The notes beneath the pieces are model-generated. The model was not told the origin of the DNA. It did no database searches and saw nothing but the letters and a program-made list of their open reading frames with translations. From positions 66,263-130,262 of IMG/VR virus record IMGVR_UViG_3300047160_007578: a DNA stretch of 64,000 nucleotides; one strand, 5' to 3'. The position numbers and the translations under genes are program-made. This DNA comes from a virus. Shown here piece by piece: positions 1,143 to 26,577 of this stretch (positions are counted from its first letter, which is position 1; every line of letters starts with the position of its first letter).

Positions 1143-1249
1143 CACTAACTACTTGGTTCCCACTCCTTGGATGGTTACGCTTCTTCGTTTGGTTCCCACT
1201 GGCTGGTTGGTTACACCATGGTCTTGGTTCTCTCGGCTCGATCGGTTTA
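1143..1249 (-). repeat. TIGR-like dual-repeat array A (3 units)
   Basis: Plus strand alternates TGGTTCCCAC/TGGTTCTCTC (1154, 1190, 1225) with TGGTTACRC (1172, 1208), separated by unique 8-9 nt spacers; intergenic. Confidence 0.8.
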
Positions 1250-1603
1250 AGTGTGAAGAGCCGCTTCGATTTCCACCAGGCGATTCTCAGGGAAGCCACA
1301 GAGTATCGCGAATGGACGCAGATCGCTGGTGTCCATGCTCGGATACTTCTTGCCTTCGCTCCTGGAGAACTCGAACCGTTCGCGAAGATTTTTGATCAGC
1401 CGAGCCAACTTTGGCTCGACTTCGACTTCCTTGCCGGTGTCCTCATCCGTCATGACGAAGACGCCTTGATTGTCCGCTGTGACGAAAGCGCAATCTTGTT
1501 CGTCAGCCGGTTGCATCCAGATTTGGAAGTAGACCGACGTAACATGATCGTAACCGGCGGCGAAGCGGTACTTCTCGCCGTCGAATTCCACCCGAGTGCC
1601 CAT
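1247..1603 (-). CDS. hypothetical protein
   Basis: 118-aa ORF with AAGGA RBS. Confidence 0.7.
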   Translation of the reverse strand: MGTRVEFDGEKYRFAAGYDHVTSVYFQIWMQPADEQDCAFVTADNQGVFVMTDEDTGKEVEVEPKLARLIKNLRERFEFSRSEGKKYPSMDTSDLRPFAILCGFPENRLVEIEAALHT

Positions 1604-1606
1604 GAA

Positions 1607-1771
1607 TCACTTCCTTTCGCCGATTGAGTTGATGGCGTCATCGAACGCCTTATTGTACTCCCGATTTTCCCGCTGTTGGACCGTTCCTTTGTAGCTCTGA
1701 AACAGGCACACTCCGGCGGTCACAAAGACCATGCCGAGAACGATGCAGACAGCACAAAACAGGTCTCTCAC
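1607..1771 (-). CDS. small membrane protein
   Basis: 54-aa ORF missing from the track (VRDLFCAVCIVLGMVFVTAGVCLF...), GGTGG RBS, one hydrophobic segment. Confidence 0.6.
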   Translation of the reverse strand: MRDLFCAVCIVLGMVFVTAGVCLFQSYKGTVQQRENREYNKAFDDAINSIGERK

Positions 1772-1823
1772 GAATCACCACCTTTCATTGTTAGGATCAA
1801 TCCAACTTTCTGATTATTGATCA

Positions 1824-1858
1824 CGCAACCACAATGGTTCTCACGCTCGGGGTGGTTA
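1824..1858 (-). repeat. TIGR-like single unit B
   Basis: Minus strand TAACCA-CCCCGAGC-GTGAGAACCA-TTGTGGTT-GCG, just downstream of a promoter. Confidence 0.7.
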
Positions 1859-1879
1859 TTTGATCATTAATCATTGGCC

Positions 1880-1996
1880 AGATTAATCAAATCTTTCCGA
1901 CGCGCGGCGCGCATCGCTCCGCTACTATAGCTTACCATATTATTTTGCCTATGTCAAGAGGAATTTTTCAGATTGTTGGAAAGATTTGATTAATCT
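1880..1996 (-). promoter_or_regulatory. sigma70-type promoter bracketed by 19-bp inverted repeats
   Basis: TTGACA(1957-1952)-17 nt-TAAGCT(1934-1929) with extended -10 TG; flanks AGATTAATCAAATCTTTCC / GGAAAGATTTGATTAATCT. Confidence 0.85.
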
Positions 1997-2039
1997 CGCC
2001 TTTTGTCCACAAAAAGCTACCTTGCTTTTCGATTATTAA

Positions 2040-2627
2040 TCAATCTCTTCCAAGCTTCTTAAATTGAGCACTAATCGAAGCCAATTGGAAACTGAGATAA
2101 GTGACAGGAGCATCAGCATGGCTGTGTAATAAATTCCAGAGTCGCGGAAAAGTGATCGCAGCACCACCTTCACTAATGAATTCCTTAACATTGTCGTCCG
2201 AATCATCGACAAGAATCTTGTTTGGCCCAGCACAGAAATGTTTCGCGGGACCGATAAGGAACTGTGGAGCGAGTAACGGATAGTGTTTCTGCAACCAGTC
2301 AATTTTACCGGCGACAGATTCACCGACGCGATCCATCGGGAAATCGCCTTTGGATGTTGGCAGTGACGTACAGATACAGATTTCTTTCGGATCAAAGTAG
2401 GCGAGTATCATTTTCACAATATCATCAGCCCAGGGCGTCTTGTGAGCGTTCGCCCAAAAAGCATAATTGCATGGCTTCCACCACGGTTCAGGGATTTCGA
2501 GTCCCACCGAGAATCGCCATTCGCCTTTGACTTTCCATTCGTTCGGGACACCAAAGGCTTCCGCGATTCCACGGTGGATATCAGCCAACACGCCGTCTAA
2601 ATCAAGACAGCATTTGAGCTTAGGCAT
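2040..2627 (-). CDS. HAD-family 5'(3')-deoxyribonucleotidase
   Basis: DLDGVLAD motif I, K, and LVDDS motif IV. Confidence 0.85.
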   Translation of the reverse strand: MPKLKCCLDLDGVLADIHRGIAEAFGVPNEWKVKGEWRFSVGLEIPEPWWKPCNYAFWANAHKTPWADDIVKMILAYFDPKEICICTSLPTSKGDFPMDRVGESVAGKIDWLQKHYPLLAPQFLIGPAKHFCAGPNKILVDDSDDNVKEFISEGGAAITFPRLWNLLHSHADAPVTYLSFQLASISAQFKKLGRD

Positions 2628-2642
2628 CTTTCCTCCTGATCA

Positions 2643-2747
2643 TTAATCATTCTTTCGGTTGATAATCCAATAAGCAAACGCGAATGCAGCCCCGACAATA
2701 AGAAATATAATTAAAACAATATCAAAGGGCTCGAATATTTCTTTCAT
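2643..2747 (-). CDS. small membrane peptide
   Basis: 34-aa ORF MKEIFEPFDIVLIIFLIVGAAFAFAYWIINRKND, ATGA overlap with the upstream stop, GAGGA RBS. Confidence 0.55.
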   Translation of the reverse strand: MKEIFEPFDIVLIIFLIVGAAFAFAYWIINRKND

Positions 2748-3274
2748 AATTCCTCACTAGAGAAAAGTAATTGCCTGAGTAATTCTATTTGTTGATGTAT
2801 CCTGCCGTGCTGCTCGTGCGTGAATCTGTTACAATCTCCCGATAGCTCGTACACACGATTGATAAACTCCGGACTATCGCCGAAAGTATCATACGCCGCG
2901 AAGATCGAAGCACAGTATTGTTCGATATCCATTTCTTCCGGAACATAGTCTGTGGCATAGACTATCACTTTTACCGCGTCGATACCAGCTTCCTCTAGGA
3001 AATGCCTTTTATTTTCTTCGACGTTTTGAACATTAATCACCATATTGTATCGCCTGACCAAAGCCTCTGCTATTTCTCTTTCGGTGATTTTCAACTGAAC
3101 ACCATAGATTGTATTACCATTATTTTCCCCTTCTACTTTCCTGGTATCTTTCAACTGCTCTTTGTGCTTATTTAAGAAATCCTGTAATTCAGCTTCGGAA
3201 TGTGTTTCGATATTAAAAACAGCATAAGAGCAATGGTAAGCCGATTGCTCGTAATCACCCGTTACCCTTAGCAT
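2744..3274 (-). CDS. hypothetical protein
   Basis: 176-aa ORF with AAGGA RBS. Confidence 0.7.
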   Translation of the reverse strand: MLRVTGDYEQSAYHCSYAVFNIETHSEAELQDFLNKHKEQLKDTRKVEGENNGNTIYGVQLKITEREIAEALVRRYNMVINVQNVEENKRHFLEEAGIDAVKVIVYATDYVPEEMDIEQYCASIFAAYDTFGDSPEFINRVYELSGDCNRFTHEQHGRIHQQIELLRQLLFSSEEL

Positions 3275-3527
3275 ATCGTTTCCTTTCCTTTCCTCTTTTC
3301 TCGTTTACGCCTTTCATATGCAGCCACAAAAAGAGTGCGTGTATCCACTGAGACGTATTCGCCATATCGCGCCAGATATCATCGACTTCTTTCGATTCAG
3401 TATCAGTTAACACATCTAGGGCACAATCGTACCATTTGATATTAGTGCCTTCCCCTTTATTCATCTTCGCTTGTGCCGCCTCTTGGCAAAGCTGCCGAAT
3501 GACTTCTTTTTGTCGCGTCATACCCAT
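3255..3527 (-). CDS. hypothetical protein
   Basis: 90-aa ORF with GGAGG RBS. Confidence 0.7.
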   Translation of the reverse strand: MGMTRQKEVIRQLCQEAAQAKMNKGEGTNIKWYDCALDVLTDTESKEVDDIWRDMANTSQWIHALFLWLHMKGVNEKRGKERKRYAKGNG

Positions 3528-3602
3528 CTTCCTCCAGGGTTTAGATACTATAGCATAGTATACTATAGTATCCGAAAATTGAAAAAGATTAATAATCCTG
3601 AA

Positions 3603-4661
3603 TTAAAATTTCCGCTGAACAGGTCGGGTCATATTGAGGAACGTATCAGCATCCTTCTGAGTGTCGAAGGCCATCTGCAATTGATTCGTTAACAGACCGC
3701 AACGCATATCAGATTCCTCTTTCGACAGGTCACGAAAGAAATGGTCGCTGTGAGCGGCTTCCCAAATCCCCTGCGCAAACGTGAACGTCTCATGCTGGAA
3801 GTCGGCACCGACTCGCATCCGATGTTCCGCGATCCGAATATCCGGAAACTCTGACCCGTTGGGCGCGCAGCAGATTTGATCGATGGCCGCGATAAAATCC
3901 TCTCCCACGGAACAGCCGAGCAACCACGCGTACACGGACAGCTGCGTTGCCCAATCAATGTTGGTCTGTTCCAGAAAACCAGCGCCGTTGATTAATGTTC
4001 CGTTGTGCATGAGCAGCCGGCAGTCATCGTGTTTTCCAGCTTTCTTCCGGTCGCGCCTGAGACGCACATAGCCCGGCATCGGCGAGACGGGTGTGCGTGA
4101 GAGATAGCCGTTGACCTTGAAATCGAGAATGACGTGCGAGCCGAACTTGTTGATGTAGAACACGTCAGGTTTGCCCAGGAAAGTTACACCGCCCCGGACC
4201 ATCGTTTTCGCTTCGCGCTCGGTTCCCGTTTCGCCCGGTCGGCCCGGATCACCTTGCTTCGCTCGGTCGCTGTGAACCGCGCCCATGACTTCGATTTCAA
4301 ACTGTGGAATATTAATCGCTTGATTGAGTTCGAGCATCAGATCAGCCAGCGCTCCGGATTTCTCGTAGATATCGAAAAGGTACATGCCGTGCAGTCGCGC
4401 CCAGTCACGCCATTCCTGGGAAACTTGAGCCTCGAAGATATTGTCGAAAGCATACTTCGGGTCGTGGCCCTTGCCGAAGAGTTTCTCGTGAACGTAGTTC
4501 TTGACGTATGCATCGAACGAACTTCCGATTGCCATTGGTTGCGTCTGCGGTTCGCGAACCCTATCGATTGGTGCCAAATAGTCCAGGTAGAATTGTTCCG
4601 GATTCTTTCGGTACGTACTGATTCCGGTCGGACTCAGATAACGCAGGGTCTTGTTCTTCAA
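3603..4661 (-). CDS. PD-(D/E)XK (RecB/Cas4-like) exonuclease
   Basis: N-terminal LSPT..ST, GKPD, ILDFK and QLSVY motifs. Confidence 0.8.
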   Translation of the reverse strand: MKNKTLRYLSPTGISTYRKNPEQFYLDYLAPIDRVREPQTQPMAIGSSFDAYVKNYVHEKLFGKGHDPKYAFDNIFEAQVSQEWRDWARLHGMYLFDIYEKSGALADLMLELNQAINIPQFEIEVMGAVHSDRAKQGDPGRPGETGTEREAKTMVRGGVTFLGKPDVFYINKFGSHVILDFKVNGYLSRTPVSPMPGYVRLRRDRKKAGKHDDCRLLMHNGTLINGAGFLEQTNIDWATQLSVYAWLLGCSVGEDFIAAIDQICCAPNGSEFPDIRIAEHRMRVGADFQHETFTFAQGIWEAAHSDHFFRDLSKEESDMRCGLLTNQLQMAFDTQKDADTFLNMTRPVQRKF

Positions 4662-4858
4662 GGCTGGCTCCGTTCATCAACGAACTTTGTAAGGGCTTTT
4701 CCCATTTTACTATCAGTTGTTTTAGTTGGATCGATATTAGCGTTGGCGTATTCTACCCATTCTTTCCAAAGCTGTGGATTTTTGTCGCATATTAACATCG
4801 CATGTCCAGCCCACTGCCATCCCAGCAGGCTCAGTTCTTCTTCAGTCCAGTTTGGCAC
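4658..4858 (-). CDS. hypothetical protein
   Basis: 66-aa ORF, GGAGG RBS, overlaps the next start. Confidence 0.65.
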   Translation of the reverse strand: MPNWTEEELSLLGWQWAGHAMLICDKNPQLWKEWVEYANANIDPTKTTDSKMGKALTKFVDERSQP

Positions 4859-4879
4859 ATACCCTCCAATGATTATTGA

Positions 4880-5677
4880 TCACGGTTGCAATTTCATTCC
4901 ACTTACTTCGGTGAGCCCATCGACTTCTTCGACCTTCGCGTCGCAGAAGATTGATGGGAATTTGTTCACGCAGATATTGTAGACCTGACTGTAAACGTAT
5001 CGAATCTCCCACTCCGAATGTCGCGACGTTCGCATCTGCATCGTGTGACGGAGCGAACGGAGATTGAGAGAAAAGCCGATTTCATTGCTCTGGCCATTCG
5101 GCAGGAATCGACGCAGAGCAGAGGTTATCTTTTTCTTTTTATTGAAGTCGAGACTCTTATCATTGAGGCCCATCTTGGCGACCATCTTCCGATAATATTC
5201 TTCGATGATTCGTAGGAGTTCCTCTCCCTCTTCCCGGACAGGTTCGAGAATTGGATCAAAAATCAAATCAATGGTCTCGCCCCGGACGTAGCGGCCGCTG
5301 GTCTGAGAGAACGCCGTGCCGACGCGATGCCTGACGAGTTCGTGCGTAAAGACGCGTGAACAGTTCCGGACAACGAAGTTCAGTTGAGTATGCTCGAAAA
5401 CCGAACCGTGACCGGAATCAAAGCAACTCTTAAGATTGGCTGGAATATCTCGGATTTTGGTAACATTGTCATTTTTGCCGAGTGTCAGGCTAGCGTAGCA
5501 CAGCTTCGCATAGAAGCTGCACAACACTTCACCTGGGTGTAAGCCCTGCTCGATTGCGGATTCAACCGAGCCTATGAAGTTCATGTTACCGGAATCTTTC
5601 AGGTACTCACGAAACGCTTGCCATTCGATTCCGGTGTAGCCGATGAGATATACCTGCGGTTTGACGAACTGACCCAT
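4880..5677 (-). CDS. thyX: flavin-dependent thymidylate synthase
   Basis: GHGSVFEH and THELVRHR...SQTSGRY ThyX signature. Confidence 0.95.
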   Translation of the reverse strand: MGQFVKPQVYLIGYTGIEWQAFREYLKDSGNMNFIGSVESAIEQGLHPGEVLCSFYAKLCYASLTLGKNDNVTKIRDIPANLKSCFDSGHGSVFEHTQLNFVVRNCSRVFTHELVRHRVGTAFSQTSGRYVRGETIDLIFDPILEPVREEGEELLRIIEEYYRKMVAKMGLNDKSLDFNKKKKITSALRRFLPNGQSNEIGFSLNLRSLRHTMQMRTSRHSEWEIRYVYSQVYNICVNKFPSIFCDAKVEEVDGLTEVSGMKLQP

Positions 5678-5697
5678 GATAACCTTCCCTTGTTTGA

Positions 5698-6216
5698 TTA
5701 ATAATCGTGTTTGACCGGTGTAATAGTATCAAGATCAAGAACAACATGAAACCTATCATCAGTCCCATCATTACCAACCTGATGATTAATCCAATAAGGC
5801 ATCGGTCCGTACCAATGTCCTGCGCGCATATTAATCCTTCCGTTGTGTTCGTCCCACCACCAACATTCGGGATTTGTCCAGACAGGAAGATGCCACCGTT
5901 CAACCCTGACAACTTGTTTGGGTGTGCGCTTTTGATACGTCGTATCTTTCAGGGTATCCGTGTGAATCGGAACGGTGACGCCGGGAGGAAGATGATTAAT
6001 AGTCAAATAGATCGCAGCGTCTCCCCGCATCTGTTCAAGCTCTTTGATAGCGTCGATCAGATTTGGGTAGCGAATTAAGGTTCCCATCATATCTTGAATT
6101 CGAGTACTTTGGGGCAGATACATCCTAGCCCCGGAACCATCAAGCTGATATTCCAGTTTCGATATTTCGTCCCAAACACCTAGTGTAAAGACGTTTGATT
6201 TAACTGTTCGGAGCAT
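5698..6216 (-). CDS. 2OG-Fe(II) oxygenase, Asp/Asn beta-hydroxylase-like
   Basis: LPPG...HTD, RWHLP and HQVGN...RFHVVLD facial-triad pattern. Confidence 0.8.
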   Translation of the reverse strand: MLRTVKSNVFTLGVWDEISKLEYQLDGSGARMYLPQSTRIQDMMGTLIRYPNLIDAIKELEQMRGDAAIYLTINHLPPGVTVPIHTDTLKDTTYQKRTPKQVVRVERWHLPVWTNPECWWWDEHNGRINMRAGHWYGPMPYWINHQVGNDGTDDRFHVVLDLDTITPVKHDY

Positions 6217-6251
6217 CCTTCGTCTCCCAGCCGGTTACAATTAATAATCAA

Positions 6252-6321
6252 TGGAACTGGCTGGACTCGAACCAGCAACTCGGCGCATGCACTCCGTGTG
6301 ATACCGTTTCACCACAGCCCC
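6252..6321 (-). tRNA. tRNA-like gene with Ala identity (G3:U70, A73) and an aberrant anticodon arm
   Basis: Acceptor GGGGCTG/CAGTTCC, D arm GTGA/TCAC with GG, T arm GCTGG-TTCGAGT-CCAGC; 16-nt anticodon arm containing TGC; no CCA encoded. Confidence 0.75.
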
Positions 6322-6408
6322 ACCAACTCAGGTTTTCCTTCTCCTCTTTCTGGCTCCCGCGAACTGACTAAATTCGACATGCCCAGCGGTCGCGGGCGTT
6401 TCGGGCCT

Positions 6409-6705
6409 TCATGCGAAACCGCTGAACGCGACGTGACCCGCGGTCGCCTGCGGCGGCGAAATGTCCACATCGACCGTATCGTCACCAGTAATGGCGACGC
6501 CGTTGCTGGTACCCTGCCAGCTGATGGTGGCCGTTCCTGCTCCGATCGCCGTCACCTTGCAAGTCGTGTCCCCGGTGGGGGCCAAGAGAACAATACCAGG
6601 CGTGTCGGAGAGAAACTTGCCACTACCAGGATCGATGGTTCCGTCAGGCGGAATCGGTGTAATGGTGATAGTGCCAATGTCACCGATGGTCCCGGAGGCA
6701 TCCAT
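6409..6705 (-). CDS. small Ig-like beta-sandwich protein
   Basis: Thr/Gly-rich beta pattern (VTAIGAGTATISW), AAGGA RBS. Confidence 0.55.
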   Translation of the reverse strand: MDASGTIGDIGTITITPIPPDGTIDPGSGKFLSDTPGIVLLAPTGDTTCKVTAIGAGTATISWQGTSNGVAITGDDTVDVDISPPQATAGHVAFSGFA

Positions 6706-6746
6706 TTGTTTTCCTTGTGTTGAATTGCTTTTTTAATAGACCACGA

Positions 6747-7025
6747 TTAAAGATCAAATTCTTCGATTTTAATACGCATAAACGACGCCAATTGTTCGCG
6801 ATTATATTGTGGATTCAATTGCTCATATTTTCGGAGTCTTTCGCCCCATATCTTTTTATCCCTCTCTGGCTGATCCTCGCGCATATCTTCATCAAATTGT
6901 TCGGGCGTCATCTGTATTCTGCGAATTAATTCTTCCCTGGGCATCTTGAACTTATTAAGCAACTTACGAACCTGTTCCCTCCATTGGGCGGGATGGATAG
7001 GAACGTATCGAAGCGATTCGATCAT
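6747..7025 (-). CDS. hypothetical protein
   Basis: 92-aa ORF overlapping the upstream stop. Confidence 0.65.
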   Translation of the reverse strand: MIESLRYVPIHPAQWREQVRKLLNKFKMPREELIRRIQMTPEQFDEDMREDQPERDKKIWGERLRKYEQLNPQYNREQLASFMRIKIEEFDL

Positions 7026-7327: not shown

Positions 7328-8104
7328 TTATTCAGGTTCTTGGATCGAGTTCGCGTCGTCTATTAGCTTTTCAAATGGAAGTGTCGATCGTTGCTTGCCC
7401 TTGACTTTTGATCTGGAAAAACGACGCGAATGATTAATGATCCCTTTATCAGTTTTCTTGTATCGGTCGTAAAGATCACCGAGCAGTTTAATAACATAGT
7501 TCGGCTTGATTTCCAATATATCAGCAACCTCATTTGGAGTATATCCTGCGGACTTCAGACGCACAATCGCTCGCTTGTATTCGCGACGCACAAGATTATC
7601 GTCAGCCTTGATACAAGTTTCGATTGTTTCCAAAATCTCCAATATACTAGATTCGTGATCTTCCAATCGAGCCTGGTAGTCACCGAGAAAATCAAGTAAA
7701 GGTGAAATGAAGTCCGGATCATGAGCCTTCTTATGCCGATATGTGCGAGCCGGCATAAGATGCTGACTTTCGATGTAATCGATAATTGCACCTTTCATGA
7801 TCGTTGAAAGGTACGGCGTGATATTGTCATCAACCAGAACGGTTGGTGCTCGTTTAATACCCTGTGCAAGAGCTAGCATAGCTTCTTGCACAGCATCTGA
7901 AATGATATGTCTAGCTGTGAATCCGATACGACAGGCCAACGCGATCGCTAACCGCATATGGCCAAAGAAAATCGTTTCGATATCTTTCCGCGTAGCGGTA
8001 TTGTTTCTGAGTTTTTGGACGAGTTCGATCAGTTCCGTTTCCGGCAAAGGATCAGGTATAATGAACGGAGTATAGGGATTATCTACACCGCGTCCTCGTC
8101 GCAT
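7328..8104 (-). CDS. sigma-70 family RNA polymerase sigma factor
   Basis: Region 2-like HMRLAIALA...DAVQEAMLAL...YL...KGAIIDY and region 4 HTH GYTPNEVADILEI. Confidence 0.75.
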   Translation of the reverse strand: MRRGRGVDNPYTPFIIPDPLPETELIELVQKLRNNTATRKDIETIFFGHMRLAIALACRIGFTARHIISDAVQEAMLALAQGIKRAPTVLVDDNITPYLSTIMKGAIIDYIESQHLMPARTYRHKKAHDPDFISPLLDFLGDYQARLEDHESSILEILETIETCIKADDNLVRREYKRAIVRLKSAGYTPNEVADILEIKPNYVIKLLGDLYDRYKKTDKGIINHSRRFSRSKVKGKQRSTLPFEKLIDDANSIQEPE

Positions 8105-10701: not shown

Positions 10702-11245
10702 CACCCTGCCCAAAGGTTTTTAGGACAAAGAACTCTCGTATTGTGAATCGCGTAATTGGATACGTTGTGCCGTTCGGATCATAAATCATACCGCGTTCCC
10801 AAGCAACAGCATGTTCGTTACCGTTCTCAGTCGTGCCGACCAAGACACCACGGTTTGCGATTACTAATCTTTCTAGGACTTCATTATCAACAACCGTAGA
10901 ATATATTCCTTTCTTTATTTTTTCGATTGTATTCATCGCCTCCATATAATCGCTCTCAACAAGGCCAGCGGTGATCCGCATGAATTCTTCTTCCAGATCA
11001 ATGATCACACTTTGTGGATTAAGTTCAAAATGAATCGCAGCCCATCCGCGGACAAACGCGAACATGATTATTTCTTGTGGGTGAAACGCTCGCCGACATT
11101 TCGGCTCTGGTAAATCTGGCCATATTATTTCCGAACCATCGTGCCCAATGTACGTGAGTATTTCTCCCACTGGTATATTCATCGCCATAGCGAAAGCCGT
11201 GGGAAGACATGACCAGCGATTCGGTTGGATTTGACTATTAATCAT
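10658..11245 (-). CDS. papain-like / C39-type cysteine peptidase
   Basis: Q....SCLPTAFAM catalytic Cys region, HAVAW and YDP. Confidence 0.7.
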   Translation of the reverse strand: MINSQIQPNRWSCLPTAFAMAMNIPVGEILTYIGHDGSEIIWPDLPEPKCRRAFHPQEIIMFAFVRGWAAIHFELNPQSVIIDLEEEFMRITAGLVESDYMEAMNTIEKIKKGIYSTVVDNEVLERLVIANRGVLVGTTENGNEHAVAWERGMIYDPNGTTYPITRFTIREFFVLKTFGQGEINQIFPEAGKNSS

Positions 11246-11271
11246 TCTGTGCCCTCATTGAATAAATCGTT

Positions 11272-11505
11272 TCAACCAGACACCGCCGGTTTCCACGGCG
11301 GCTTGGGCGGTGACGGCGGCGCGTGCGCATGACTCTGCATGCAGTCGAACGAACAGAACATATCGTTGAACGTGACGCCATGCAACGGTCCACCGCAATT
11401 GGTGCACCTGTGCTGACCGCTCTGCGTCGAGTGCGTATACGCACCCGTGGACAGCTGCGGCGGTGGTGGTTTCTTCTGCTGTTTCTCAGTGAAAAATTCG
11501 TTCAT
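11272..11505 (-). CDS. TRASH/YacG-like zinc-finger protein 1
   Basis: CTNCGG...FCSFDC with Pro-rich flanks. Confidence 0.7.
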   Translation of the reverse strand: MNEFFTEKQQKKPPPPQLSTGAYTHSTQSGQHRCTNCGGPLHGVTFNDMFCSFDCMQSHAHAPPSPPKPPWKPAVSG

Positions 11506-11613
11506 TGTTCACACCGTCTTTGGTTCTCGCAACATGGTGGATACGCGTAGATGGTGGTTCTCTCTACTCCTTCGGATACACCCACATAATGGTTCTCACG
11601 GCGATCAAGGCTA
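11506..11613 (-). repeat. TIGR-like dual-repeat array C (3 units)
   Basis: Plus strand TGGTTCTCNC at 11521, 11555, 11590 alternating with YGGATACRC at 11538, 11573; spacers 7-8 nt. Confidence 0.8.
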
Positions 11614-11958
11614 TCCGTTCCGAATCGAACCGCCGGCGCCAGGACCACCGCCGATCATGCCGCGCGTACCGGTAATCGAATTGTCGATGACAGCGTTGGG
11701 CGTGTAATTGGTTCCGATTTTCTTTCCGGTAACTTTTTTCGAGCACTTGTCGCAGCTGCCGCCACAGGAGCAACCATCATGGTCGTCTTGGATAATCTTA
11801 TGGTTGCCAGCGCAAGTGATCGAACAGAACGAATCTCCGAAAATCGGGCCGTTGATCGGACCAGAGCAATACTTGCACGTACCAGAAGCCGGCTGAATAC
11901 CGGTCGGCGTTTGGATCGCGGGCGGCGGTGATTCCGGTGGACCGTAGAGGCGGTTCAT
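11611..11958 (-). CDS. TRASH/YacG-like zinc-finger protein 2
   Basis: CKYC...FCSITC, extra Cys cluster, NYTPNAVID in the tail. Confidence 0.7.
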   Translation of the reverse strand: MNRLYGPPESPPPAIQTPTGIQPASGTCKYCSGPINGPIFGDSFCSITCAGNHKIIQDDHDGCSCGGSCDKCSKKVTGKKIGTNYTPNAVIDNSITGTRGMIGGGPGAGGSIRNG

Positions 11959-13541: not shown

Positions 13542-14156
13542 TCAGTTCCCATTGGGTTTAGCTTCGAGTAAGTCTTCGTCAATCTCGATGCAGCTATCAG
13601 CAACATCGTGCAATTCTCGCGAGATATTACAAGCACAAATCACGCATTGAGCTTGTTGCTCTTTGATATACTCCACTAGGGGAGCGAGGTCGCCATCACC
13701 AGAACCGAGAACGACGATATCAACTCTGTTGACTACTCGCACAACGTCGATTGCCAAACCAACATCCCAATCAGCCTTTTTAATATCCTTTTTCGATCGG
13801 AGGGCTTTCCTGGTAGCGTCCAGTGCTGAATTAAGACGATTAATAATCTTTTCATCCAACTTGGCTAACTCAGGTAATTTGAGGAGTTCCTCGAAGGCTT
13901 CGATATCGATTCGGTAATTCGGGTTATCGAATGCTTTGGGGCGTTTGTATCGCGGTAGGTATCCGAAGGAGCGCAACGCGCCCAGGAATGCGTTCGCTTC
14001 GGTGCTGTCCTGCGCACCGTAAGCGTTAGCTCGCACAAGTTCATGATTCCCAAGGACGTAGTCCTTGTACCTGCGATAGTCGAGCTTCCGGTCGAACTTC
14101 TTTTTGATGCAGTAGTACAGGTTGGATACGTCGATGAAAATGCCCATCCGGGCCAT
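13542..14156 (-). CDS. NYN-domain (LabA/DUF88, PIN-like) nuclease
   Basis: IFIDVSN, KKADWDVGLAID and LGSGDGDLAP motifs. Confidence 0.9.
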   Translation of the reverse strand: MARMGIFIDVSNLYYCIKKKFDRKLDYRRYKDYVLGNHELVRANAYGAQDSTEANAFLGALRSFGYLPRYKRPKAFDNPNYRIDIEAFEELLKLPELAKLDEKIINRLNSALDATRKALRSKKDIKKADWDVGLAIDVVRVVNRVDIVVLGSGDGDLAPLVEYIKEQQAQCVICACNISRELHDVADSCIEIDEDLLEAKPNGN

Positions 14157-19810: not shown

Positions 19811-20683
19811 TCACATCTTGTGAACCGCCATCAAATCAAGTACCTCAACTGGTGGACTGTATCTCAAGTGATTTTCTTTCGCGTATTCAACCAGATCGCG
19901 GTACAGATCAAGGTCACTGATTTCGCCGTTCGCCCATGCCAGAGCACGGGTTGCCAGATTCCCCTGTCCCATTTCTTCAATGATATGATCGATCATCTGG
20001 AAGATTTCTTCCGGATTCCGACGCTTCCGTTGCGTTGGCTTGGACTTCTTCTTCTTGATCACCGGAAGTCGTGTCTCGTTCCGAAGCTTCGCTTCCTTGA
20101 TGGCCTTTGCCATCGTCATCTGTTCCGACGGGTCTTTGATTTCAGAAAGATCATAAATCTGTCCCTGCGTCAAGAAGCCTGCCGCGGCTGCCTCTTGGAT
20201 CGGTTCAGCCATCGAGAGCAAACCCATACGGATGACGACCCACTTCTTGCCTTGTCCAGTGAGCCTAGCAATTTCGCCGATAGTGGCACCGAGTTTAATA
20301 AAACGATCGATACCGTGAGCTTCCTGCAATATATTCAAATCCTGTCGTTGGATGTTCTCAACGAAATTGAGACCGAGAGCTTGAATCTCTGTCAAGCCCT
20401 CTCGAAGAATCGTGGGGATTGTTTCGCGCTCGAGATACTCGTAAGCCGCGTATCGTCTGTGACCTACCACAACCTTGTATTTGTAGCCCGGAATATCGAA
20501 CGGACGAACCGTGATCGGTTGAAGTAAACCCTGTGCCTCAATATCTTTTGCAAGCTCAACGATGCTTGCCGGATTAATCTCTCCGCGAATATTGAATTCC
20601 GGATCGGAAAAGATATCGGAAAGTAGAAAATGTTCTACCTTCATATCCTTTTCATTTTCAGGAATGGCCACTGCGACGTTCAT
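19811..20683 (-). CDS. ParB/Spo0J-like protein (CTPase domain plus HTH)
   Basis: ELAKDIEAQGLLQPITVR, GHRR, ENIQRQDL, followed by an HTH. Confidence 0.9.
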   Translation of the reverse strand: MNVAVAIPENEKDMKVEHFLLSDIFSDPEFNIRGEINPASIVELAKDIEAQGLLQPITVRPFDIPGYKYKVVVGHRRYAAYEYLERETIPTILREGLTEIQALGLNFVENIQRQDLNILQEAHGIDRFIKLGATIGEIARLTGQGKKWVVIRMGLLSMAEPIQEAAAAGFLTQGQIYDLSEIKDPSEQMTMAKAIKEAKLRNETRLPVIKKKKSKPTQRKRRNPEEIFQMIDHIIEEMGQGNLATRALAWANGEISDLDLYRDLVEYAKENHLRYSPPVEVLDLMAVHKM

Positions 20684-20937: not shown

Positions 20938-21028
20938 CTTGCCCCCCCTTCGCTTTGATTAATAGTCTCGGGCAGCCTCTCGTGCCAGCGACTACCCGAG
21001 ACCGGTCCCCATGCGGACCTGTTAATAC

Positions 21029-21292
21029 TTACCGCTCGAAAGCCTCCTCTTTTAGTTTCCGATAATTAGCAATGTCATCCTTGAATTGATTTTCACGGAG
21101 TCCTTCTACCCATTGCTCTGGAGCATCCGGACCACCTTCGAGCAAGTGGACGATGATGTGGCGATGATGTTTTATCTCATACTCGTATTCAACGTTCTTG
21201 AACGCCTCTGCTTTTAATTTACCCAAATAATAACCACCGACGAATGTCAACATCATACAGAAAAACACTGTGACAAGTTGATTTGATTTCAT
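21029..21292 (-). CDS. protein with an N-terminal membrane anchor
   Basis: Hydrophobic N terminus. Confidence 0.6.
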   Translation of the reverse strand: MKSNQLVTVFFCMMLTFVGGYYLGKLKAEAFKNVEYEYEIKHHRHIIVHLLEGGPDAPEQWVEGLRENQFKDDIANYRKLKEEAFER

Positions 21293-21609
21293 TAGTTTGC
21301 CATCCTATCACAGAGAGCTACTATTTTTGGATTGAGTCGAATCATATCTTCGCGAGTACCAATGTCAATCATATTACCAATTCGCTTGACGAACGCATAC
21401 ATTTCCCCTGTCGGGACATGAATGTGTATTTTGGTCAGACCTTCCTTGAAATCATCCTGATGTTGACCTACTAGATTAAGAATCGCATCGTTATCAAGTC
21501 CGGACTTTTCTCTCAAATCGCTACCGATACCAACATCGAGAACATCATTTTGTGCAGCCATCGCTGCCCGGAATTGAAACGCTGCTGAGTCGATTCTTTC
21601 CGGTTCCAC
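21292..21609 (-). CDS. hypothetical protein
   Basis: 105-aa ORF, 1-bp overlaps at both ends. Confidence 0.65.
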   Translation of the reverse strand: MEPERIDSAAFQFRAAMAAQNDVLDVGIGSDLREKSGLDNDAILNLVGQHQDDFKEGLTKIHIHVPTGEMYAFVKRIGNMIDIGTREDMIRLNPKIVALCDRMAN

Positions 21610-21863
21610 TATTTTGGCCCTCCGTTCTTTACCATTTCAATCGTATCAATGCCGAACGCGGCTTTCATGAATCGACTCGCGGCACGATTGGCGGCGACAC
21701 GCTCCATGCCTTCGTCAACAGAACACATCGCGATATTGCAGTGCCACGACCACGCATAGGCGGGATCATCGGCGAACACTTTGCTGAGCACCGCAAGAGC
21801 TTCTTTCGGAGTGTTCATTTTAATAGATTCCTGATCAATAATCATTCCGGAAAATTGAGACAC
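21609..21863 (-). CDS. hypothetical phage protein
   Basis: DPAYAWSWHCNIAM conserved-looking motif. Confidence 0.65.
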   Translation of the reverse strand: MSQFSGMIIDQESIKMNTPKEALAVLSKVFADDPAYAWSWHCNIAMCSVDEGMERVAANRAASRFMKAAFGIDTIEMVKNGGPK

Positions 21864-22330
21864 GCAAACTCGCCAAAATATTTCTTTGCCGCCCTGTCGT
21901 AAGCTCTCGCTGCTTCCTCTTCAGTATTAAAGGAACCCAGATATTTTGACTTACCGTTAAGTCGAATCTGAGCACACCATGTTCCACTTTTCTTGTAGTA
22001 ATGAACACCTTTATAATCGCTATATTTCTTTCTACTTTGTGCTCTTCGATTTTGACAAGTATGAGCAGTTGTAGCTTCTCTCAGATTTTCTCGCGTACAG
22101 TTAAAAGGCTGTTGATCTTTATGATCAATATCTTTTTCTTTTGACAATCTCATTCTGTTCGCGATAAATCGGTGCAGATACTGCTTTCGATATTTTCCAT
22201 CAATTTTTATATCGCGAAAAGCATAACCTTTACCATTACTGTGCCAAAGAAAAGCCTTAACAGCTACTTCGTCTTCAACACTAACATAATGAAAATCATC
22301 ACCTGTTACAGAAATACGAGCAACAGTCAT
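21842..22330 (-). CDS. HNH-AP2 homing endonuclease
   Basis: LHRFI, IDHKD...N.RENLR, and AP2 domain YKGV...W.AQI...YLGSF.TEEEAARAYD. Confidence 0.9.
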   Translation of the reverse strand: MTVARISVTGDDFHYVSVEDEVAVKAFLWHSNGKGYAFRDIKIDGKYRKQYLHRFIANRMRLSKEKDIDHKDQQPFNCTRENLREATTAHTCQNRRAQSRKKYSDYKGVHYYKKSGTWCAQIRLNGKSKYLGSFNTEEEAARAYDRAAKKYFGEFACLNFPE

Positions 22331-24390
22331 ATTGCACGCTCATACTCAATTTCCACTTTATTCATTACTGTTTGAAGTTGTCCGAGACTCATGTTCATCA
22401 GATTAATCTTACGAATATGACTTTCCAACACAACTTCATCTTGCGGTAAATGCACCAAGTCTATTATTTGACAGCCACGATTGTGATCTGCTCCAGGACG
22501 ATGTATTCGATCAATTGCTTGCGCTCTATCTTCAGCGCGAAACGAATTAGAGTAGAATACTTCAGCCGACGAAGCTGTTAAATTTAGCCCCATTCCACCT
22601 GCCCCAGGATTACCAACAAAAACTACCTTAGGAAAATCATTCGTATTATCAAATAGTTGGAGCATCCGAACTCCAAACTCTTTCGTAATCACTACTTCCA
22701 TTTTAGTCATAATATCAGGACTTGCCCACCAACCACGACCATCCAATCTAATAACAGACCAACCATTTTTAATACACGTATCAACATTACGGTCAACGCT
22801 ATCGGAAAATGCGGCCCAGATTATAAATCGTCCTTCGTCTGAAAATTGATCAAGCAAATCAGCAATGACCTGATCCTTCGGGCATTCGACGCGAGTAGCA
22901 ATGCGAGAGTAATGAACAACCGTGCCCTTCTTTCCGCATTGGGGACAGTCGATTTCCTTTTCACCGATATTGAGTGGTTCTTCCTTGTAGCCAGTTACGA
23001 TGTTCTTTTCTTCGTCCCATATTGCTCGATGACCGCGAGCCAGCGATTCACCATCCAGAGGATTGGTCGGATCATCCAAATCGACGTTCATTTTGATTAT
23101 TAATCGTCCCTCACAGGTCGGGCAAGTTTCCTCGCCATCGGGGACTTCCTGATATTGGAAACCATCAGATAATTCGCGATTAAGAGTCAGTGCCTTGATT
23201 GCGGAACGTGCCGTTTTCGTTATCAGATTGGAAGCCCGCAACACACTCGGTGTTGGCTTGCACTTGATTATCTTGAATACTTTTTCCGGCAAGTCCAATA
23301 GGTCTTTCTTGAACTTGACCAGTACCAGACCCTTCAATCGTTCGTACAGATACGCAACTTCGTTTACTGATTTCTGGTATGGATGATACCATGACTCGCA
23401 CATATTAATGTGATCGTGGTCGGGATCGTCCTGGAACTTCCCGCATACTTTACATTTATTTTCATCGTCCCACCAGGTAACGAGTTTCGGAAAGCTCCCG
23501 CCGGTGGAACTCTCGTATTGTTTGATCAGCGCGAGTCGATTTTTGAACTTAACCAGATTCCCTTCCTTTAGAAATCCCGGACAAGCTATCTCACATAACG
23601 ACCACCAGTCCGATGGGTCTTTCGGTGCTGGCGTGCCAGTCATCAGAATGATTAATGATTCGCGACCATATAGATGACGCATCCTATCAGCGATGATTTG
23701 AATTGCCTGAGTCCGCTGAGCAGTAGGAGTCTTGAGCCGACTTGCCTCGTCGCACACTAGAACCCGCGGCAGAATGATTTGATCGAGCTTATCTACAAAT
23801 GACCGTATTGCCTCGTAGGTAAAGAACAGTGGCACTGTCCCAGCTTGCCACTTGACGAATTCATATTTCACCGAATCCAACGCAGATCGCGGTCCAGCCC
23901 ACATACATTCTTCGGGCTTGAATCGCAGGACGTTTATTGCGTACTCAAGCGCTTCAATAGACGCCAGAGTCTTACCAACACCCATTTCCTCAGCAACAAT
24001 GCAATGTCGCCGAGTTAGCTCGAATGCCGTCGTTTCGACTTGATGGTTGTACGGTGGCGGATTAGTTCGGTAGGAATTATATTCGACCAGTGGCGTGTCA
24101 TATGGGGCATACGGGTTCAACCCCATCAGATACGCTAACTGGAAATGATTGCGAGGAGTGTCACTGACTACCCAAACCTTGCGTGGCTTCTCTTCATCGA
24201 AACCGAGCCAGCGTGCTCCCTCCATCGCTTTGACTTCATCTTTCAATCTGGCGTTGAAACCAAATTGGATTAATAATCGAGAATAGCCGTGAATCTGTTC
24301 GCGAACTATCACGGCTGGCATCGTTCGCGTCCGTCCGTCAGAGACATACTGAAAACGAACATGCCCTGTCGGAATGTTAATAAGTGGCAT
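22327..24390 (-). CDS. SNF2-family helicase
   Basis: EMGVGKT, DEAS, MTGTP, GMGLNL and QAIDRIHR; CxxC insertions. Confidence 0.92.
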   Translation of the reverse strand: MPLINIPTGHVRFQYVSDGRTRTMPAVIVREQIHGYSRLLIQFGFNARLKDEVKAMEGARWLGFDEEKPRKVWVVSDTPRNHFQLAYLMGLNPYAPYDTPLVEYNSYRTNPPPYNHQVETTAFELTRRHCIVAEEMGVGKTLASIEALEYAINVLRFKPEECMWAGPRSALDSVKYEFVKWQAGTVPLFFTYEAIRSFVDKLDQIILPRVLVCDEASRLKTPTAQRTQAIQIIADRMRHLYGRESLIILMTGTPAPKDPSDWWSLCEIACPGFLKEGNLVKFKNRLALIKQYESSTGGSFPKLVTWWDDENKCKVCGKFQDDPDHDHINMCESWYHPYQKSVNEVAYLYERLKGLVLVKFKKDLLDLPEKVFKIIKCKPTPSVLRASNLITKTARSAIKALTLNRELSDGFQYQEVPDGEETCPTCEGRLIIKMNVDLDDPTNPLDGESLARGHRAIWDEEKNIVTGYKEEPLNIGEKEIDCPQCGKKGTVVHYSRIATRVECPKDQVIADLLDQFSDEGRFIIWAAFSDSVDRNVDTCIKNGWSVIRLDGRGWWASPDIMTKMEVVITKEFGVRMLQLFDNTNDFPKVVFVGNPGAGGMGLNLTASSAEVFYSNSFRAEDRAQAIDRIHRPGADHNRGCQIIDLVHLPQDEVVLESHIRKINLMNMSLGQLQTVMNKVEIEYERAI

Positions 24391-24450
24391 TCACCCTCCG
24401 CGTCTGAGCACGGGAATCCCGTGCTCGATAAATTGGACTGTCCCAATAAA

Positions 24451-24660
24451 TCAAGCTGCTCCCACAAGATCATTGACTATTGCAACGAATTGATAAATCC
24501 GGTATCCATCCTCGCTATATCGTTCCGTTTGCCGATAGAGGTAATCGACACCATCCACATGAATAAGGATGGTATCACTGTGTCGCCCGAGTGGTAGAAA
24601 TCGGCGGGTTCCGTCACGCGGGCCGAACCGAAACTCAATGTACATGTTCGCCCCTCTCAT
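24451..24660 (-). CDS. hypothetical protein
   Basis: Short ORF with F.FGP.DG motif; true start probably 24645. Confidence 0.55.
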   Translation of the reverse strand: MRGANMYIEFRFGPRDGTRRFLPLGRHSDTILIHVDGVDYLYRQTERYSEDGYRIYQFVAIVNDLVGAA

Positions 24661-24672
24661 AAATCGTAATCG

Positions 24673-24731
24673 TAGAATTATGATCTTTAATTGTGATCTA
24701 GAATTATGATCTAGAATTATGATCTTTAATC
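24673..24731. repeat. 13-bp tandem repeat (TAGAATTATGATC-like, about 4.5 copies)
   Basis: TAGAATTATGATC TTTAATTGTGATC TAGAATTATGATC TAGAATTATGATC TTTAATC. Confidence 0.8.
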
Positions 24732-24811
24732 AAACAAACGCCTCTTCCCTGTCCCTGCTTCGCGGCGTTTTCACTGGCTGTGTAATAGCACGAATACAGT
24801 TGCAATACTAA

Positions 24812-24851
24812 GGCCCACTGCTATGGGTATCGCTACCCATAGCAGTGGACC
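24812..24851 (-). terminator. strong hairpin after the Gly-rich peptide gene
   Basis: CCACTGCTATGGGTA-tcgc-TACCCATAGCAGTGG perfect stem. Confidence 0.6.
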
Positions 24852-24856
24852 GGCCA

Positions 24857-25069
24857 CTAACGGCAGCGACCGCCGGAACAGCCACCCCCATAGGAGAAGC
24901 CACCCGCGTAGGCGAAACCGCCCGCGTAGCCGCCACCGCACCCGCCACCGTAAACGACGGCGTGTCCACCACCGCGCCGGCCGCCGCCTCGACAGCCCCG
25001 AGCGTCCACGGTCTCCACGAAAAGCACAGAGCCAATAAGTGCAACGAGAGCCAAAGCCAGGAATCGCAT
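24857..25069 (-). CDS. secreted Gly/Cys/Arg-rich peptide
   Basis: Signal peptide MRFLALALVALIGSVLFVETVDA followed by RGCRGGG...GGGCSGGRCR; GGAG RBS. Confidence 0.65.
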   Translation of the reverse strand: MRFLALALVALIGSVLFVETVDARGCRGGGRRGGGHAVVYGGGCGGGYAGGFAYAGGFSYGGGCSGGRCR

Positions 25070-25113
25070 AGCGTGTTCTCCGCGAGTGACCAGAACGATC
25101 AATGATCACGCGA

Positions 25114-25425
25114 TCACATCATCGCCCCGGTATGAATCAGAATTATGTTACTGTTAATTTCGATCGGTTTGATTTTGCCCTTATTTGCATCCTGCCAATC
25201 TTTTTCCGTAGAGAAGATGATATTATCCAGTTTGGTGGCGAGCCATTCGTAGAGCCAGGTGTCCACCGGATGACCCTGCTCGTTGTTCGCGAGATTGCCG
25301 TATTCACCGTGGCACTTCCAGAGATTCTTGAACTCGTCCGACATGGGATCAAGTTCAAGATCATAAATCGTGGTCGCCTCCGGCACCGCCTCGAAGATAA
25401 CCAGAGCCCGAGTGAGAGTGTTCAC
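25114..25425 (-). CDS. hypothetical protein
   Basis: 103-aa ORF with GTGA overlap. Confidence 0.65.
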   Translation of the reverse strand: MNTLTRALVIFEAVPEATTIYDLELDPMSDEFKNLWKCHGEYGNLANNEQGHPVDTWLYEWLATKLDNIIFSTEKDWQDANKGKIKPIEINSNIILIHTGAMM

Positions 25426-25955
25426 TGAATCTTCCTTTTCTCGATCAGTCTAATAGTACGGTCATTCGTGAGAATAAATTCAAGCGCCATGTATTGAGTC
25501 ATAGCGGCATCTTCCAATCGACCATAGGCCAATGTTCCAAATTCGCGGACTTCAAATGATTGACCATTGGAGCAGCAATTAAGTAATGCGGATCGCCATT
25601 CATGCAACGTGCCCGATACTATTGAGATTCGGAAGTTCTCCAGACATGACTTCGCTGCCGTGAAGTGAAGTCTGGAACGATTAATAATCTCTAAGAGTGC
25701 CGCATCCGTGCAGACCAGAATGAATGAAACATGAACGTGAACCAACAAATGATTTGCAGCTTCAAACGGTTCACTGCCGGGCGTATCAATTTCTTTCAGA
25801 GCGACGATGAAATCAGACAACGATTTCGTGGGCGTGATCCAACGCGCATTCAATTGCTCAAGAGGGTTTCGCTTGAGAACGTCAGAGACTTCTCTCAAAA
25901 AGGTATCCCAATCAACTTGTGTTTGTGCTATCGGTATTAGGCGGATCATAGTCAA
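25422..25955 (-). CDS. degenerate ThyX-like protein
   Basis: LVHVHVSF..., IVSGTLHEW...EVRE pattern echoes ThyX without the RHR...S.R catalytic motif. Confidence 0.4.
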   Translation of the reverse strand: MTMIRLIPIAQTQVDWDTFLREVSDVLKRNPLEQLNARWITPTKSLSDFIVALKEIDTPGSEPFEAANHLLVHVHVSFILVCTDAALLEIINRSRLHFTAAKSCLENFRISIVSGTLHEWRSALLNCCSNGQSFEVREFGTLAYGRLEDAAMTQYMALEFILTNDRTIRLIEKRKIQ

Positions 25956-26098
25956 GCCTTATTCTCGGCAATGGGCATTGAAGCGTGTCGCCGTTTCTGA
26001 CAACGACACCATCCATGTGAACTGTTCCGTTACCGTCATCGACAGCCGTGTAAATCTCGCGGTGTCCTTCTCGTCGAGTCACGACTACTTCAACTTCA

Positions 26099-26347
26099 CA
26101 CTCTTCCATTGGTTCGCACTCACAGCGGGGTTGAACAGGCTGTTTGGTTCACGCGTGGAATGTGACTTCACACCCGACTGCTGGTTCTCGCAACGGATAA
26201 GGCTACGCGCATCGTCATCGGTTCTCACCATGTGCATGACTACACGTTTGACTTGGTTCCCGCACACTGCATGGCTGCACACTTCCATTGTTTCTCGCGA
26301 AGAAGGTGGCTACGCTCGGTACCTGGTTCTCGCCGCGGGTCTGTTTA
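26099..26347 (-). repeat. TIGR-like dual-repeat array D (7 units)
   Basis: Seven TGGTTCNCRC-type repeats alternating with six TGRCTACRC-type repeats; spacers mostly 8 nt (two of 10); period 35-37. Confidence 0.88.
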
Positions 26348-26536
26348 CTTCTTTTTCTTCTTGGCCATGCCTTTGAGCGTCTTGGCCAAGTTGCATCGTT
26401 TCTGCGTGGTGCCCGACAGGTTGCCCTGGGCACAGAACTCGCTGATCGACATTCCGGCTGCAGCTGCTTGTCGCGTGAGTGCTCCCGGATTTTTGATCGC
26501 CTTCTGGATGAACTTCTTGGCCTTCTTTTTCGCCAT
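26345..26536 (-). CDS. small Lys-rich basic protein
   Basis: MAKKKAKKFIQKAIKNPGAL...LAKTLKGMAKKKKK. Confidence 0.75.
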   Translation of the reverse strand: MAKKKAKKFIQKAIKNPGALTRQAAAAGMSISEFCAQGNLSGTTQKRCNLAKTLKGMAKKKKK

Positions 26537-26542
26537 GACAAA

Positions 26543-26577
26543 CCCCTTACCTTTGGTTCGCACGCAGTCATTGGGTT
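26543..26577 (-). repeat. TIGR-like single unit E
   Basis: Minus strand AACCCA-ATGACTGC-GTGCGAACCA-AAGGTAAG-GGG. Confidence 0.6.

Follow-up and report, generated by a model that had tools for sequence, protein, structure and literature searches.

Background

TIGR arrays are built from two alternating repeats of 8-12 nucleotides (nt) with spacers of about 9 nt, and the corresponding tigRNA is 36 nt long (PMC12045711). The main text of the same paper describes repeats that start with a box D motif (UG) and end with a box C motif (CCA), and arrays that typically, though not universally, end in a terminator. In SpTasH a C-terminal Y/H dyad (Y289/H296) is reported to cut the precursor (PMC13421893), and for a nuclease-less TasA, repression of transcription under RNA guidance has been reported (bioRxiv 10.64898/2026.09.09.750476). 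The ways in which TIGR arrays change, and their targets, are given as open questions in the main texts of PMC12045711 and 10.64898/2026.09.09.750476. Here we describe arrays of this kind in a 64,000-nt stretch of viral DNA, bases 66,263-130,262 of virus record IMGVR_UViG_3300047160_007578, together with the effector gene tasA, which lies elsewhere in the same record. "The window" means this whole stretch, and positions are those of the window unless marked as genome.

Our preferred reading, to which we assign a probability of roughly 80%, is that a 130-kb soil phage carries one dual-repeat TIGR-TasA system and that five intergenic loci in the window are its satellite mini-arrays. Most guides of this phage are located 8-34 kb from tasA, amid genes of replication and nucleotide metabolism. 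The record is linear, 130,262 bp long, with a G+C content of 48.6%. At least half of the sampled words from a 10-kb stretch of the window are present in nine soil DNA runs, and one soil contig spans positions 10901-11683, including the third of the five loci, with zero differences.

Repeat units in the window

The multi-unit loci share a simple anatomy. On the minus strand the edge repeat, 10 nt long (GYGNGAACCA), strictly alternates with the loop repeat, 9 nt long and occurring as GYGTAACCA, GYGTAGCCA or GYGTATCCA, with a spacer of about 8 nt after the edge and one of 8 nt after the loop. Edge and loop repeats both begin with GYG and finish with CCA. The spacers are unique, mostly 8 nt and at times 7-10 nt long; their length can be counted as 8 or 9 nt depending on the boundary of box D, because an invariant G precedes the YG. 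Successive edges are 34-37 nt apart, most commonly 35.

An earlier, sequence-only reading of this DNA had placed the repeat at five intergenic loci on the transcribed minus strand, and had named its frequency in shuffled sequence as a point on which the pattern could fail. Both matters came out in its favour. The edge motif has 12 matches in the window, of which a single one is on the plus strand; the 11 on the minus strand all fall inside the five loci. Shuffled windows give a mean of 0.91 matches and a maximum of 3, and 0 of 100 shuffles reach 12. The linked pattern GAACCA-N8-GYG likewise has 11 matches in the window against a shuffle mean of 1.17, with 10 of them on the minus strand at the same loci. 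The suggestion of a distributed guide repertoire also holds, in that the dual-repeat anatomy of TIGR arrays is found at several loci. The count of about 15 units is right for edge-type repeats (3 + 1 + 3 + 7 + 1 = 15 at no more than 2 mismatches) but not for complete units, defined as edge, spacer A, loop, spacer B and edge, of which there are 10: two at locus 1, two at locus 3 and six at locus 4. At loci 2 and 5 there is just one edge repeat each, and the adjoining sequence retains no more than remnants that resemble box C or box D.

The same asymmetry between strands is seen across the genome when the repeats are assembled into chains, that is, alternating repeats with gaps of 7-10 nt. The minus strand carries 18 chains with 85 elements, 11 of which have at least 3 elements; the plus strand carries 4 chains with 8 elements, none of them that long. 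Among 20 Markov shuffles, 18 gave no chain of 3 or more elements and 2 gave one each. Near-duplicate spacers are rare, with only 2 pairs among the 64 spacers of 32 parsed units. When the largest window array is folded as RNA, 199 of 200 shuffles fold better (z = +2.29), so the array is not a hairpin-type element, and a search of positions 1-30000 against Rfam returned zero families at the gathering score. Nor are words resembling Shine-Dalgarno sequences enriched in the spacers (7 of 64 versus 5.36 +/- 1.94, with 520 of 2000 shuffles reaching 7).

Placement of the arrays between genes

The three multi-unit arrays begin at the stop codon of the preceding gene and occupy the entire gap between that codon and the ribosome-binding site of the next gene. 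The sequence-only reading had described the start at the stop codon and the end close to the next gene start, and both stand, the latter to within about 25 nt. Its further claim, that the TAA or TAG belongs to an edge repeat, does not: the stop codons are contained in loop-type remnants, TAAACCG, TAGCCT and TAAACA.

Array 1 (locus 1, 1143-1249, minus strand) has 2 complete units and a leading loop-like remnant that contains the TAA stop of the open reading frame (ORF) at 1247-1603. Its edge repeats read GAGAGAACCA, GTGGGAACCA and GTGGGAACCA, with exact matches to the consensus at 1154-1163 and 1190-1199, and its loop repeats read GTGTAACCA and GCGTAACCA; the array ends 22 nt before an ATG at 1131. 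Locus 2 (1824-1858, minus strand) is a solo edge repeat, GTGAGAACCA, exact at 1835-1844 and flanked by ATAACCA-N8 on its 5' side and N8-GCG on its 3' side. It sits in a leader, between a promoter-like module at 1936-1957 and a GTG start at 1771, and is not a canonical unit because the edge sequence takes the position of a loop.

Array 3 (locus 3, 11506-11613, minus strand) comprises three edge and two loop repeats, making 2 complete units. Exact edges lie at 11521-11530 and 11590-11599, the loops are GTGTATCCG and GCGTATCCA, the leading loop-like remnant contains the TAG stop of ORF 11611-11958, and a further edge, the fourth, is degenerate (GTGTGAACAA) and extends over the ATG at 11505. Array 4 (locus 4, 26099-26347, minus strand) is the largest of the window, with seven edges and six loops in 6 units. 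Five of its edges are exact (26110-26119, 26145-26154, 26182-26191, 26254-26263 and 26324-26333); four of its loops are of the type GYGYAGYCA and two are degenerate. It starts with the TAA stop of ORF 26345-26536, and its final edge abuts the ATG at 26109 of ORF 25912-26109.

Locus 5 (26543-26577, minus strand) is again a solo edge repeat, GTGCGAACCA, exact at 26554-26563 and placed immediately 5' of the ribosome-binding site of ORF 26345-26536. As a guide it is incomplete, because box D is absent after the second spacer. It is preceded by a terminator-like hairpin with a weak T tail at 26626-26601 (minus strand). This is one of two strong hairpins seen in the region, the other being at 24851-24812 (minus strand), with stems of 11 and 18 pairs, respectively.

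The effector gene

The gene tasA encodes a protein of 356 amino acids, P0001; it is a minus-strand gene at genome positions 57,888-58,958 (L001:7888-8958), and 7.3 kb separate it from window base 1, which lies to its right. A Tas family profile run against six frames of the whole record found exactly one match, this gene, and none in the window. The sequence-only reading had reported no Tas in its 64 kb and had offered two explanations, a Tas encoded outside or a different, undescribed effector. It was the first that proved correct: the leftward genes run on past window base 1 toward tasA, which is flanked by larger arrays. It had also observed that a canonical Tas beside a larger array elsewhere would make this a known system with satellite arrays, and such a gene is what was found.

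The family of P0001 is large, with at least 606 homologues within the searched length range of 195-623 amino acids. A phmmer search of the protein against PDB sequences retrieved 9mty_A at E 0.0011, from 9MTY, a TasR-tigRNA-DNA structure, and a profile of 43 family members reached the same chain at E 3.8e-22 in three segments covering the Nop domain; that profile also matched TasH at 4e-6 and IS621 at 2.7e-6. The AlphaFold2 model of P0001 has a mean predicted local distance difference test score (pLDDT) of 89.5 and shows long N-terminal helices at residues 3-20, 25-54 and 60-85. When the model was compared with the PDB by Foldseek, the top ten matches were all TIGR-TasR or TasH at probability 1.00, followed by IS621 and ISCro4.

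Pfam finds no HNH or RuvC nuclease domain in P0001 at E<=10, and the alignment to TasR starts at TasR residue 121, past the RuvC domain, and at about residue 34-41 of P0001. The protein is therefore assigned to TasA; by sequence and by predicted structure, it is a nuclease-less form consisting of a putative Nop-type RNA-binding domain and coiled-coil helices. Other identities were considered and set aside. The only Pfam match of P0001 at E<=10 is PF02371, the IS110 C-terminal domain, at 16.9 bits and thus below the cut-off of 21.3; such a sub-threshold hit, with no N-terminal DEDD/RuvC-like catalytic domain, does not make it an IS110-family transposase. An archaeal or eukaryotic Nop5/Nop56/58 was rejected on the Pfam Nop model (PF01798), with which a six-frame search of the entire record gave nothing at E<=10, tasA itself being missed because Tas proteins are too distant from that model. 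A tblastn search with TasA of 50,697 GenBank phage records returned nothing at 1e-3.

That a further, undescribed effector encoded elsewhere is served by the units is highly improbable. The absence of a Tas from the window and of a Pfam Nop match from the record could be taken to favour it, but a bona fide TasA gene has these very repeats immediately on both sides, the two boxes, C and D, agree with the ones reported to be read by Tas Nop domains (PMC12045711), and no additional protein is required.

In an alignment to SpTasH (hhalign, probability 96%), Y289 pairs with F317 and H296 with H331 of P0001. Of the 43 aligned family members, 35 have tyrosine in the first of these columns, 7 have phenylalanine and 1 has tryptophan, whereas all 43 have the histidine. 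The processing loop of P0001 is longer by 6 inserted residues, an insertion found in just 2-3 of the 43 sequences. With F317 in place of the catalytic tyrosine, self-processing may be lost, and this TasA may rely on another RNase for cutting.

Layout across the genome

The genome contains 40 exact edge repeats, 38 of them on the minus strand and all of these within genome positions 55,680-92,825. Grouped from exact edge repeats and chains, they make 13 array loci spread over 37 kb. The two largest arrays enclose tasA on the same strand, one directly downstream at genome 57,680-57,872 (57.68-57.87 kb) and one directly upstream at 59,019-59,359 (59.02-59.36 kb). Only these 2 of the 13 loci adjoin the gene; the remainder are wedged among ordinary genes, at distances of up to 33.8 kb. 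Outside the window, further loci lie at genome 55.68-55.97, 60.36-60.41, 62.88-63.08, 63.33-63.37, 63.83-63.89 and 64.38 kb. The five of the window follow: locus 1 at genome 67.42-67.50 kb (8.4 kb from tasA), locus 2 at 68.10 kb (9.1 kb), locus 3 at 77.78-77.86 kb (18.8 kb), locus 4 at 92.37-92.60 kb (33.4 kb) and locus 5 at 92.82 kb (33.8 kb).

Three identical 22-nt promoter-like modules (TTGACA ... TATGgT) punctuate this region on the minus strand, at 1936-1957 (genome 68,198), genome 62,801-62,822 and genome 55,607-55,628. Each is embedded in a conserved stretch of about 100 nt and flanked by the palindrome GATYWNWRATC. Window loci 1 and 2 follow the first module, at 68,198, and tasA follows the second, at 62,801. 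The three modules, whose promoter role is judged from consensus only, may be strong early promoters heading successive leftward gene blocks that bear arrays. Neither promoter scans (22 versus 17.1 +/- 3.5, and 29 versus 19.8 +/- 4.6) nor terminator scans (11 versus 15.0, and 13 versus 16.2) stood clearly above shuffles, so the limits of operons are drawn solely from the three identical modules.

The palindrome is itself conspicuous. This 11-bp sequence occurs 103 times in the window where 2.02 occurrences are expected, and 224 times in the genome, evenly distributed. It frequently borders arrays, for example at 1812-1822, 1862-1872 and 26579-26589, and in two units (genome 57872 and 55730) it stands where the loop would be.

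The large array upstream of tasA contains an irregularity of a different sort. A non-repeat insert of about 45 nt, at genome 59,130-59,180, separates two of its units; within it are a short inverted repeat and a stretch resembling AGGAGG, and two of the relatives described below, L087 and L088, retain it in altered form.

Array change among relatives

Relatives were compared at array 4, locus 5 and the tasA-proximal arrays; the genes beside loci 1 and 3 have no close relatives in IMG/VR. Two short metagenome contigs, L087 and L088, encode TasA proteins 94-95% identical to P0001. Their proximal arrays keep the edge and loop repeats, and several of their spacers differ at no less than half of the positions. 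On the upstream side, two blocks, of about 74 and 70 nt, are absent. In L088 about 170 nt are also missing downstream of the gene, amounting to nearly the entire array there, and the flanking genes are intact.

A third relative, the virus contig L102, matches the surroundings of array 4, the flanking genes being 77-91% identical to those of the window. It has an array at the same intergenic site, yet identity across the array is only 40%, with 87 gap columns. As read from the alignment, the L102 array has fewer edge repeats than array 4, four clear ones and one degenerate one before the ATG. One core of spacer, edge and spacer is identical between the two phages, and the spacer TATCCGTT occurs at a different position. 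At locus 5 the edge repeat is kept in place in L102, which has a second edge upstream. Contigs from four soil DNA runs gave only short pieces; their joints at array 4, linking 26016 to 26208 and 26236 to 26366, have sides of 29 letters and are given no interpretation.

The downstream neighbour of array 4, ORF 25912-26109, differs from its L102 counterpart by third-position changes and an in-frame 9-nt indel and is thus a real gene, and in both phages its ATG stands directly after the final array 4 edge. This arrangement bears on a different explanation, in which the units act mainly in cis: the binding or cutting of TasA at edges would punctuate the long messages and so set the stability or translation of neighbouring genes, tasA included, and satellite guides would be secondary or absent. 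Such a role would suit arrays that span the full gap from stop codon to ribosome-binding site, with an edge or edge-like repeat abutting or overlapping the start of ORF 25912-26109, of ORF 11272-11505 and of tasA, and it would suit the retention in L102 of an ATG right after the last edge of array 4. The free change of spacers and the gain and loss of units among relatives fit guides, or unconstrained filler, better, and L088 does without nearly the whole tasA-downstream array while the genes on either side are intact. We regard a mainly cis-acting role, and with it the control of stability or translation through TasA at edge repeats, as unlikely; it is nonetheless compatible with the satellite-array reading and not exclusive of it.

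The origin of the satellites is hinted at by array 1. A tasA-proximal unit, at genome 57795, recurs in diverged form as the array 1 unit at genome 67461, with spacer A identical at 8 of 9 positions, spacer B at 5 of 8, and the unusual 9-nt spacer in both. By a binomial estimate, chance resemblance of this degree is unlikely among the 496 unit pairs. Judging by this diverged duplicate, satellites seem to originate by duplication.

Duplication is also the starting point of a third explanation, in which duplication and recombination of the tasA-proximal array gave rise to the satellites, as copies that decay or spread selfishly and presently have no function. The diverged duplicate would be expected under such a history, and so would the degenerate boxes and two incomplete solo repeats of the window and the fast turnover of the arrays. 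Against these stand three independent comparisons that show box C and box D maintained even as the spacers diverge, the strict strand bias (38 of 40), the presence of array 4 at an identical intergenic site in L102, and the occurrence of the same layout in a distant relative and around many TasA genes. On balance, functionless copies are very unlikely.

The distant relative is G001, a genome of 119.5 kb with direct terminal repeats, whose TasA is 35% identical to P0001. There, 25 of 26 edge-repeat matches are on the tas strand, over 44.7-76.0 kb, with tas at about 66.2-67.2 kb. We note separately that three successive array units in this genome (L032) have the same spacer, which may reflect a recent tandem duplication. 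For a wider view, arrays of at least 100 nt and more than 300 nt apart were sought within 10 kb on each side of tasA at the best 80 IMG/VR TasA loci. At least 2 separate arrays were present at 45 of them, at least 3 at 26 and at least 4 at 14; 80 shuffled loci together gave 15 arrays.

Proposed working and targets

Under the satellite-array reading, the arrays would be transcribed within the leftward early and replication-gene messages. Co-transcription with the flanking genes is likely, since beside the arrays there is no space for separate signals, and the units may then be cut out of polycistronic messages, as the sequence-only reading had proposed. TasA dimers would then bind box C and box D of every unit, and cuts inside the edge repeats of the precursor would release guides of about 35 nt, whose two 8-9 nt spacers would pair with opposite strands of a DNA site of 16-18 bp. 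Because TasA has no nuclease, the expected outcome is binding and a block to transcription rather than cleavage.

Several observations weigh against this reading. In the Y/H dyad of this TasA, a phenylalanine, F317, takes the place of the catalytic tyrosine. Degenerate boxes (GAAACA, GAACCG, GTCA, GCCT) are seen in several units, and loci 2 and 5 are incomplete. Where a published array would typically end in a terminator, the window arrays are followed by no terminator-like site, the ribosome-binding site or start codon of the next gene standing there instead. The record is estimated to be 88% complete. Finally, a search for self-targets of the 32 units, in both orders of the half-sites and with gaps of 0-2, gave no exact match in the phage genome.

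Near-matches in the phage genome with as many as 2 mismatches were about as numerous as in 5 controls with re-paired spacers, the counts with as many as 3 mismatches likewise equalled those of controls, and no composite match with one mismatch rose above them. The palindrome GATYWNWRATC was considered as a target and discarded, with 0 matches of the 32 guides at up to 3 mismatches versus 0-11 in 10 controls. Since no target was found in the phage itself, the guides would probably be aimed at the host or at competing mobile elements. By estimate, chance alone would give a 16-nt composite site hundreds of matches among 596 billion bases.

It is conceivable, though rather unlikely, that the scattered arrays do two jobs at once, so that the loading of TasA would both free guides and cut or mask the message at gene junctions. 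An RNA-guided DNA binder would then regulate the operons of its own phage, with feedback on tasA, downstream messages would be nearly leaderless, and different sets of guides would be supplied at different times of infection. Given the phenylalanine in place of the catalytic tyrosine, the cut might need a host or phage RNase, for which a protein with an NYN domain encoded at 13542-14156 is a candidate.

Neighbouring genes

The window genes around the arrays serve replication and nucleotide metabolism, and encode ThyX, a PD-(D/E)XK nuclease, a family A DNA polymerase, an SNF2 helicase, two ParB-like proteins and the NYN-domain protein just mentioned. The last of these (minus strand; PF01936 at E 1.3e-25) has a predicted RNase fold and belongs to the leftward gene block of array 3; it is a candidate for RNA processing. 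The ParB-like proteins, encoded at 19811-20683 and 28394-29515 (both minus strand), comprise one with ParB_N and HTH_ParB and one with ParB_N only; their genes are 27 kb and 36 kb from tasA. Some TasA loci are reported to share an operon with ParB homologues (PMC12045711). A 258-amino-acid protein encoded at 7328-8104 (minus strand) matches sigma-70 region 2 at E 3.4e-6 and may be a phage sigma factor.

Implications

Published surveys have taken the context around tas as 5 kb (PMC12045711) or 10 kb (10.64898/2026.09.09.750476). The loci of this phage extend beyond such distances, and counts of guides and searches for targets that are confined to the surroundings of tas therefore undercount systems of this type. 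In neither paper's text is any of the words dispersed, scattered or orphan used, and their supplements or TIGRSafari may list the layout or the locus. TIGR-TasA itself was described in 2025; the contribution of this phage is the layout and its dynamics. The three near relatives display gain and loss of unit-sized blocks, divergence and reshuffling of spacers, and constant repeats, which bears on both of the open questions, how the arrays change and what they target. A practical lesson is that 'orphan' arrays in partial contigs call for a check of the whole genome before a new effector is proposed.

Comparison with known systems

Small nucleolar RNAs (snoRNAs) of the box C/D class that occur in clusters resemble the present units in their order of box C, spacer and box D, as set out in PMC12045711, and probably in their release from longer transcripts. 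They differ in that none of their partners or features (K-turn, L7Ae, fibrillarin) was seen here, that PF01798 has no match, and that the targets reported for Tas are DNA and not RNA (PMC12045711). The solo or orphan vrRNAs of VIPR (10.64898/2026.10.15.759431) are a parallel of another kind, being described as phage guides away from, or without, an effector gene. VIPR guides are modelled in that source as tandem 5-nt GGYNN units, and by this published repeat code alone an identity with VIPR was set aside, leaving an analogy.

The bridge-RNA recombinases of the IS110/IS621 type have a homologous RNA-binding C-terminal domain, but they use one bridge RNA where this phage has arrays of small guides, and Pfam found no DEDD/RuvC transposase domain in P0001. 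Closer is SpTIGR-TasH of Salicola phage CGphi29 (NC_020844; PMC13421893), likewise a phage-borne dual-repeat system, whose processing histidine is kept (H296, aligned with H331). SpTasH has an HNH nuclease and is reported to cleave DNA, and its Y289 is F317 here. The best match by both sequence and fold is TaTasR (9MTY), with the profile value of E 3.8e-22 extending over TasR residues 121-323, the top place in Foldseek, and a C-terminal H-x-x-x-I-x-P-P motif in common. TaTasR has an N-terminal RuvC nuclease, whereas the first helix of P0001, which falls on the TasR coiled coil, begins at residue 3.

Dual-repeat TIGR-TasA, as described in PMC12045711 (Faure et al. 2025) and 10.64898/2026.09.09.750476 (Xu et al. 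2026), is likewise close. Here as there, edge repeats alternate with loop repeats, both carrying box D (YG) and box C (CCA), and each unit has a pair of short spacers, the period being about 35-36 nt; the Nop-domain protein stands alone, with a coiled coil but lacking a nuclease; and the setting is phage-borne, with tas-strand arrays on both sides of tas. What sets this phage apart from the published accounts is that 11 of its 13 loci are away from tasA, between ordinary genes, that the window arrays have no terminator of their own, that the core spacer is 8 nt, and that F replaces the Y of the dyad. This is a known TIGR-TasA system with satellite arrays and not a new effector, and its unusual part is the scattered layout.

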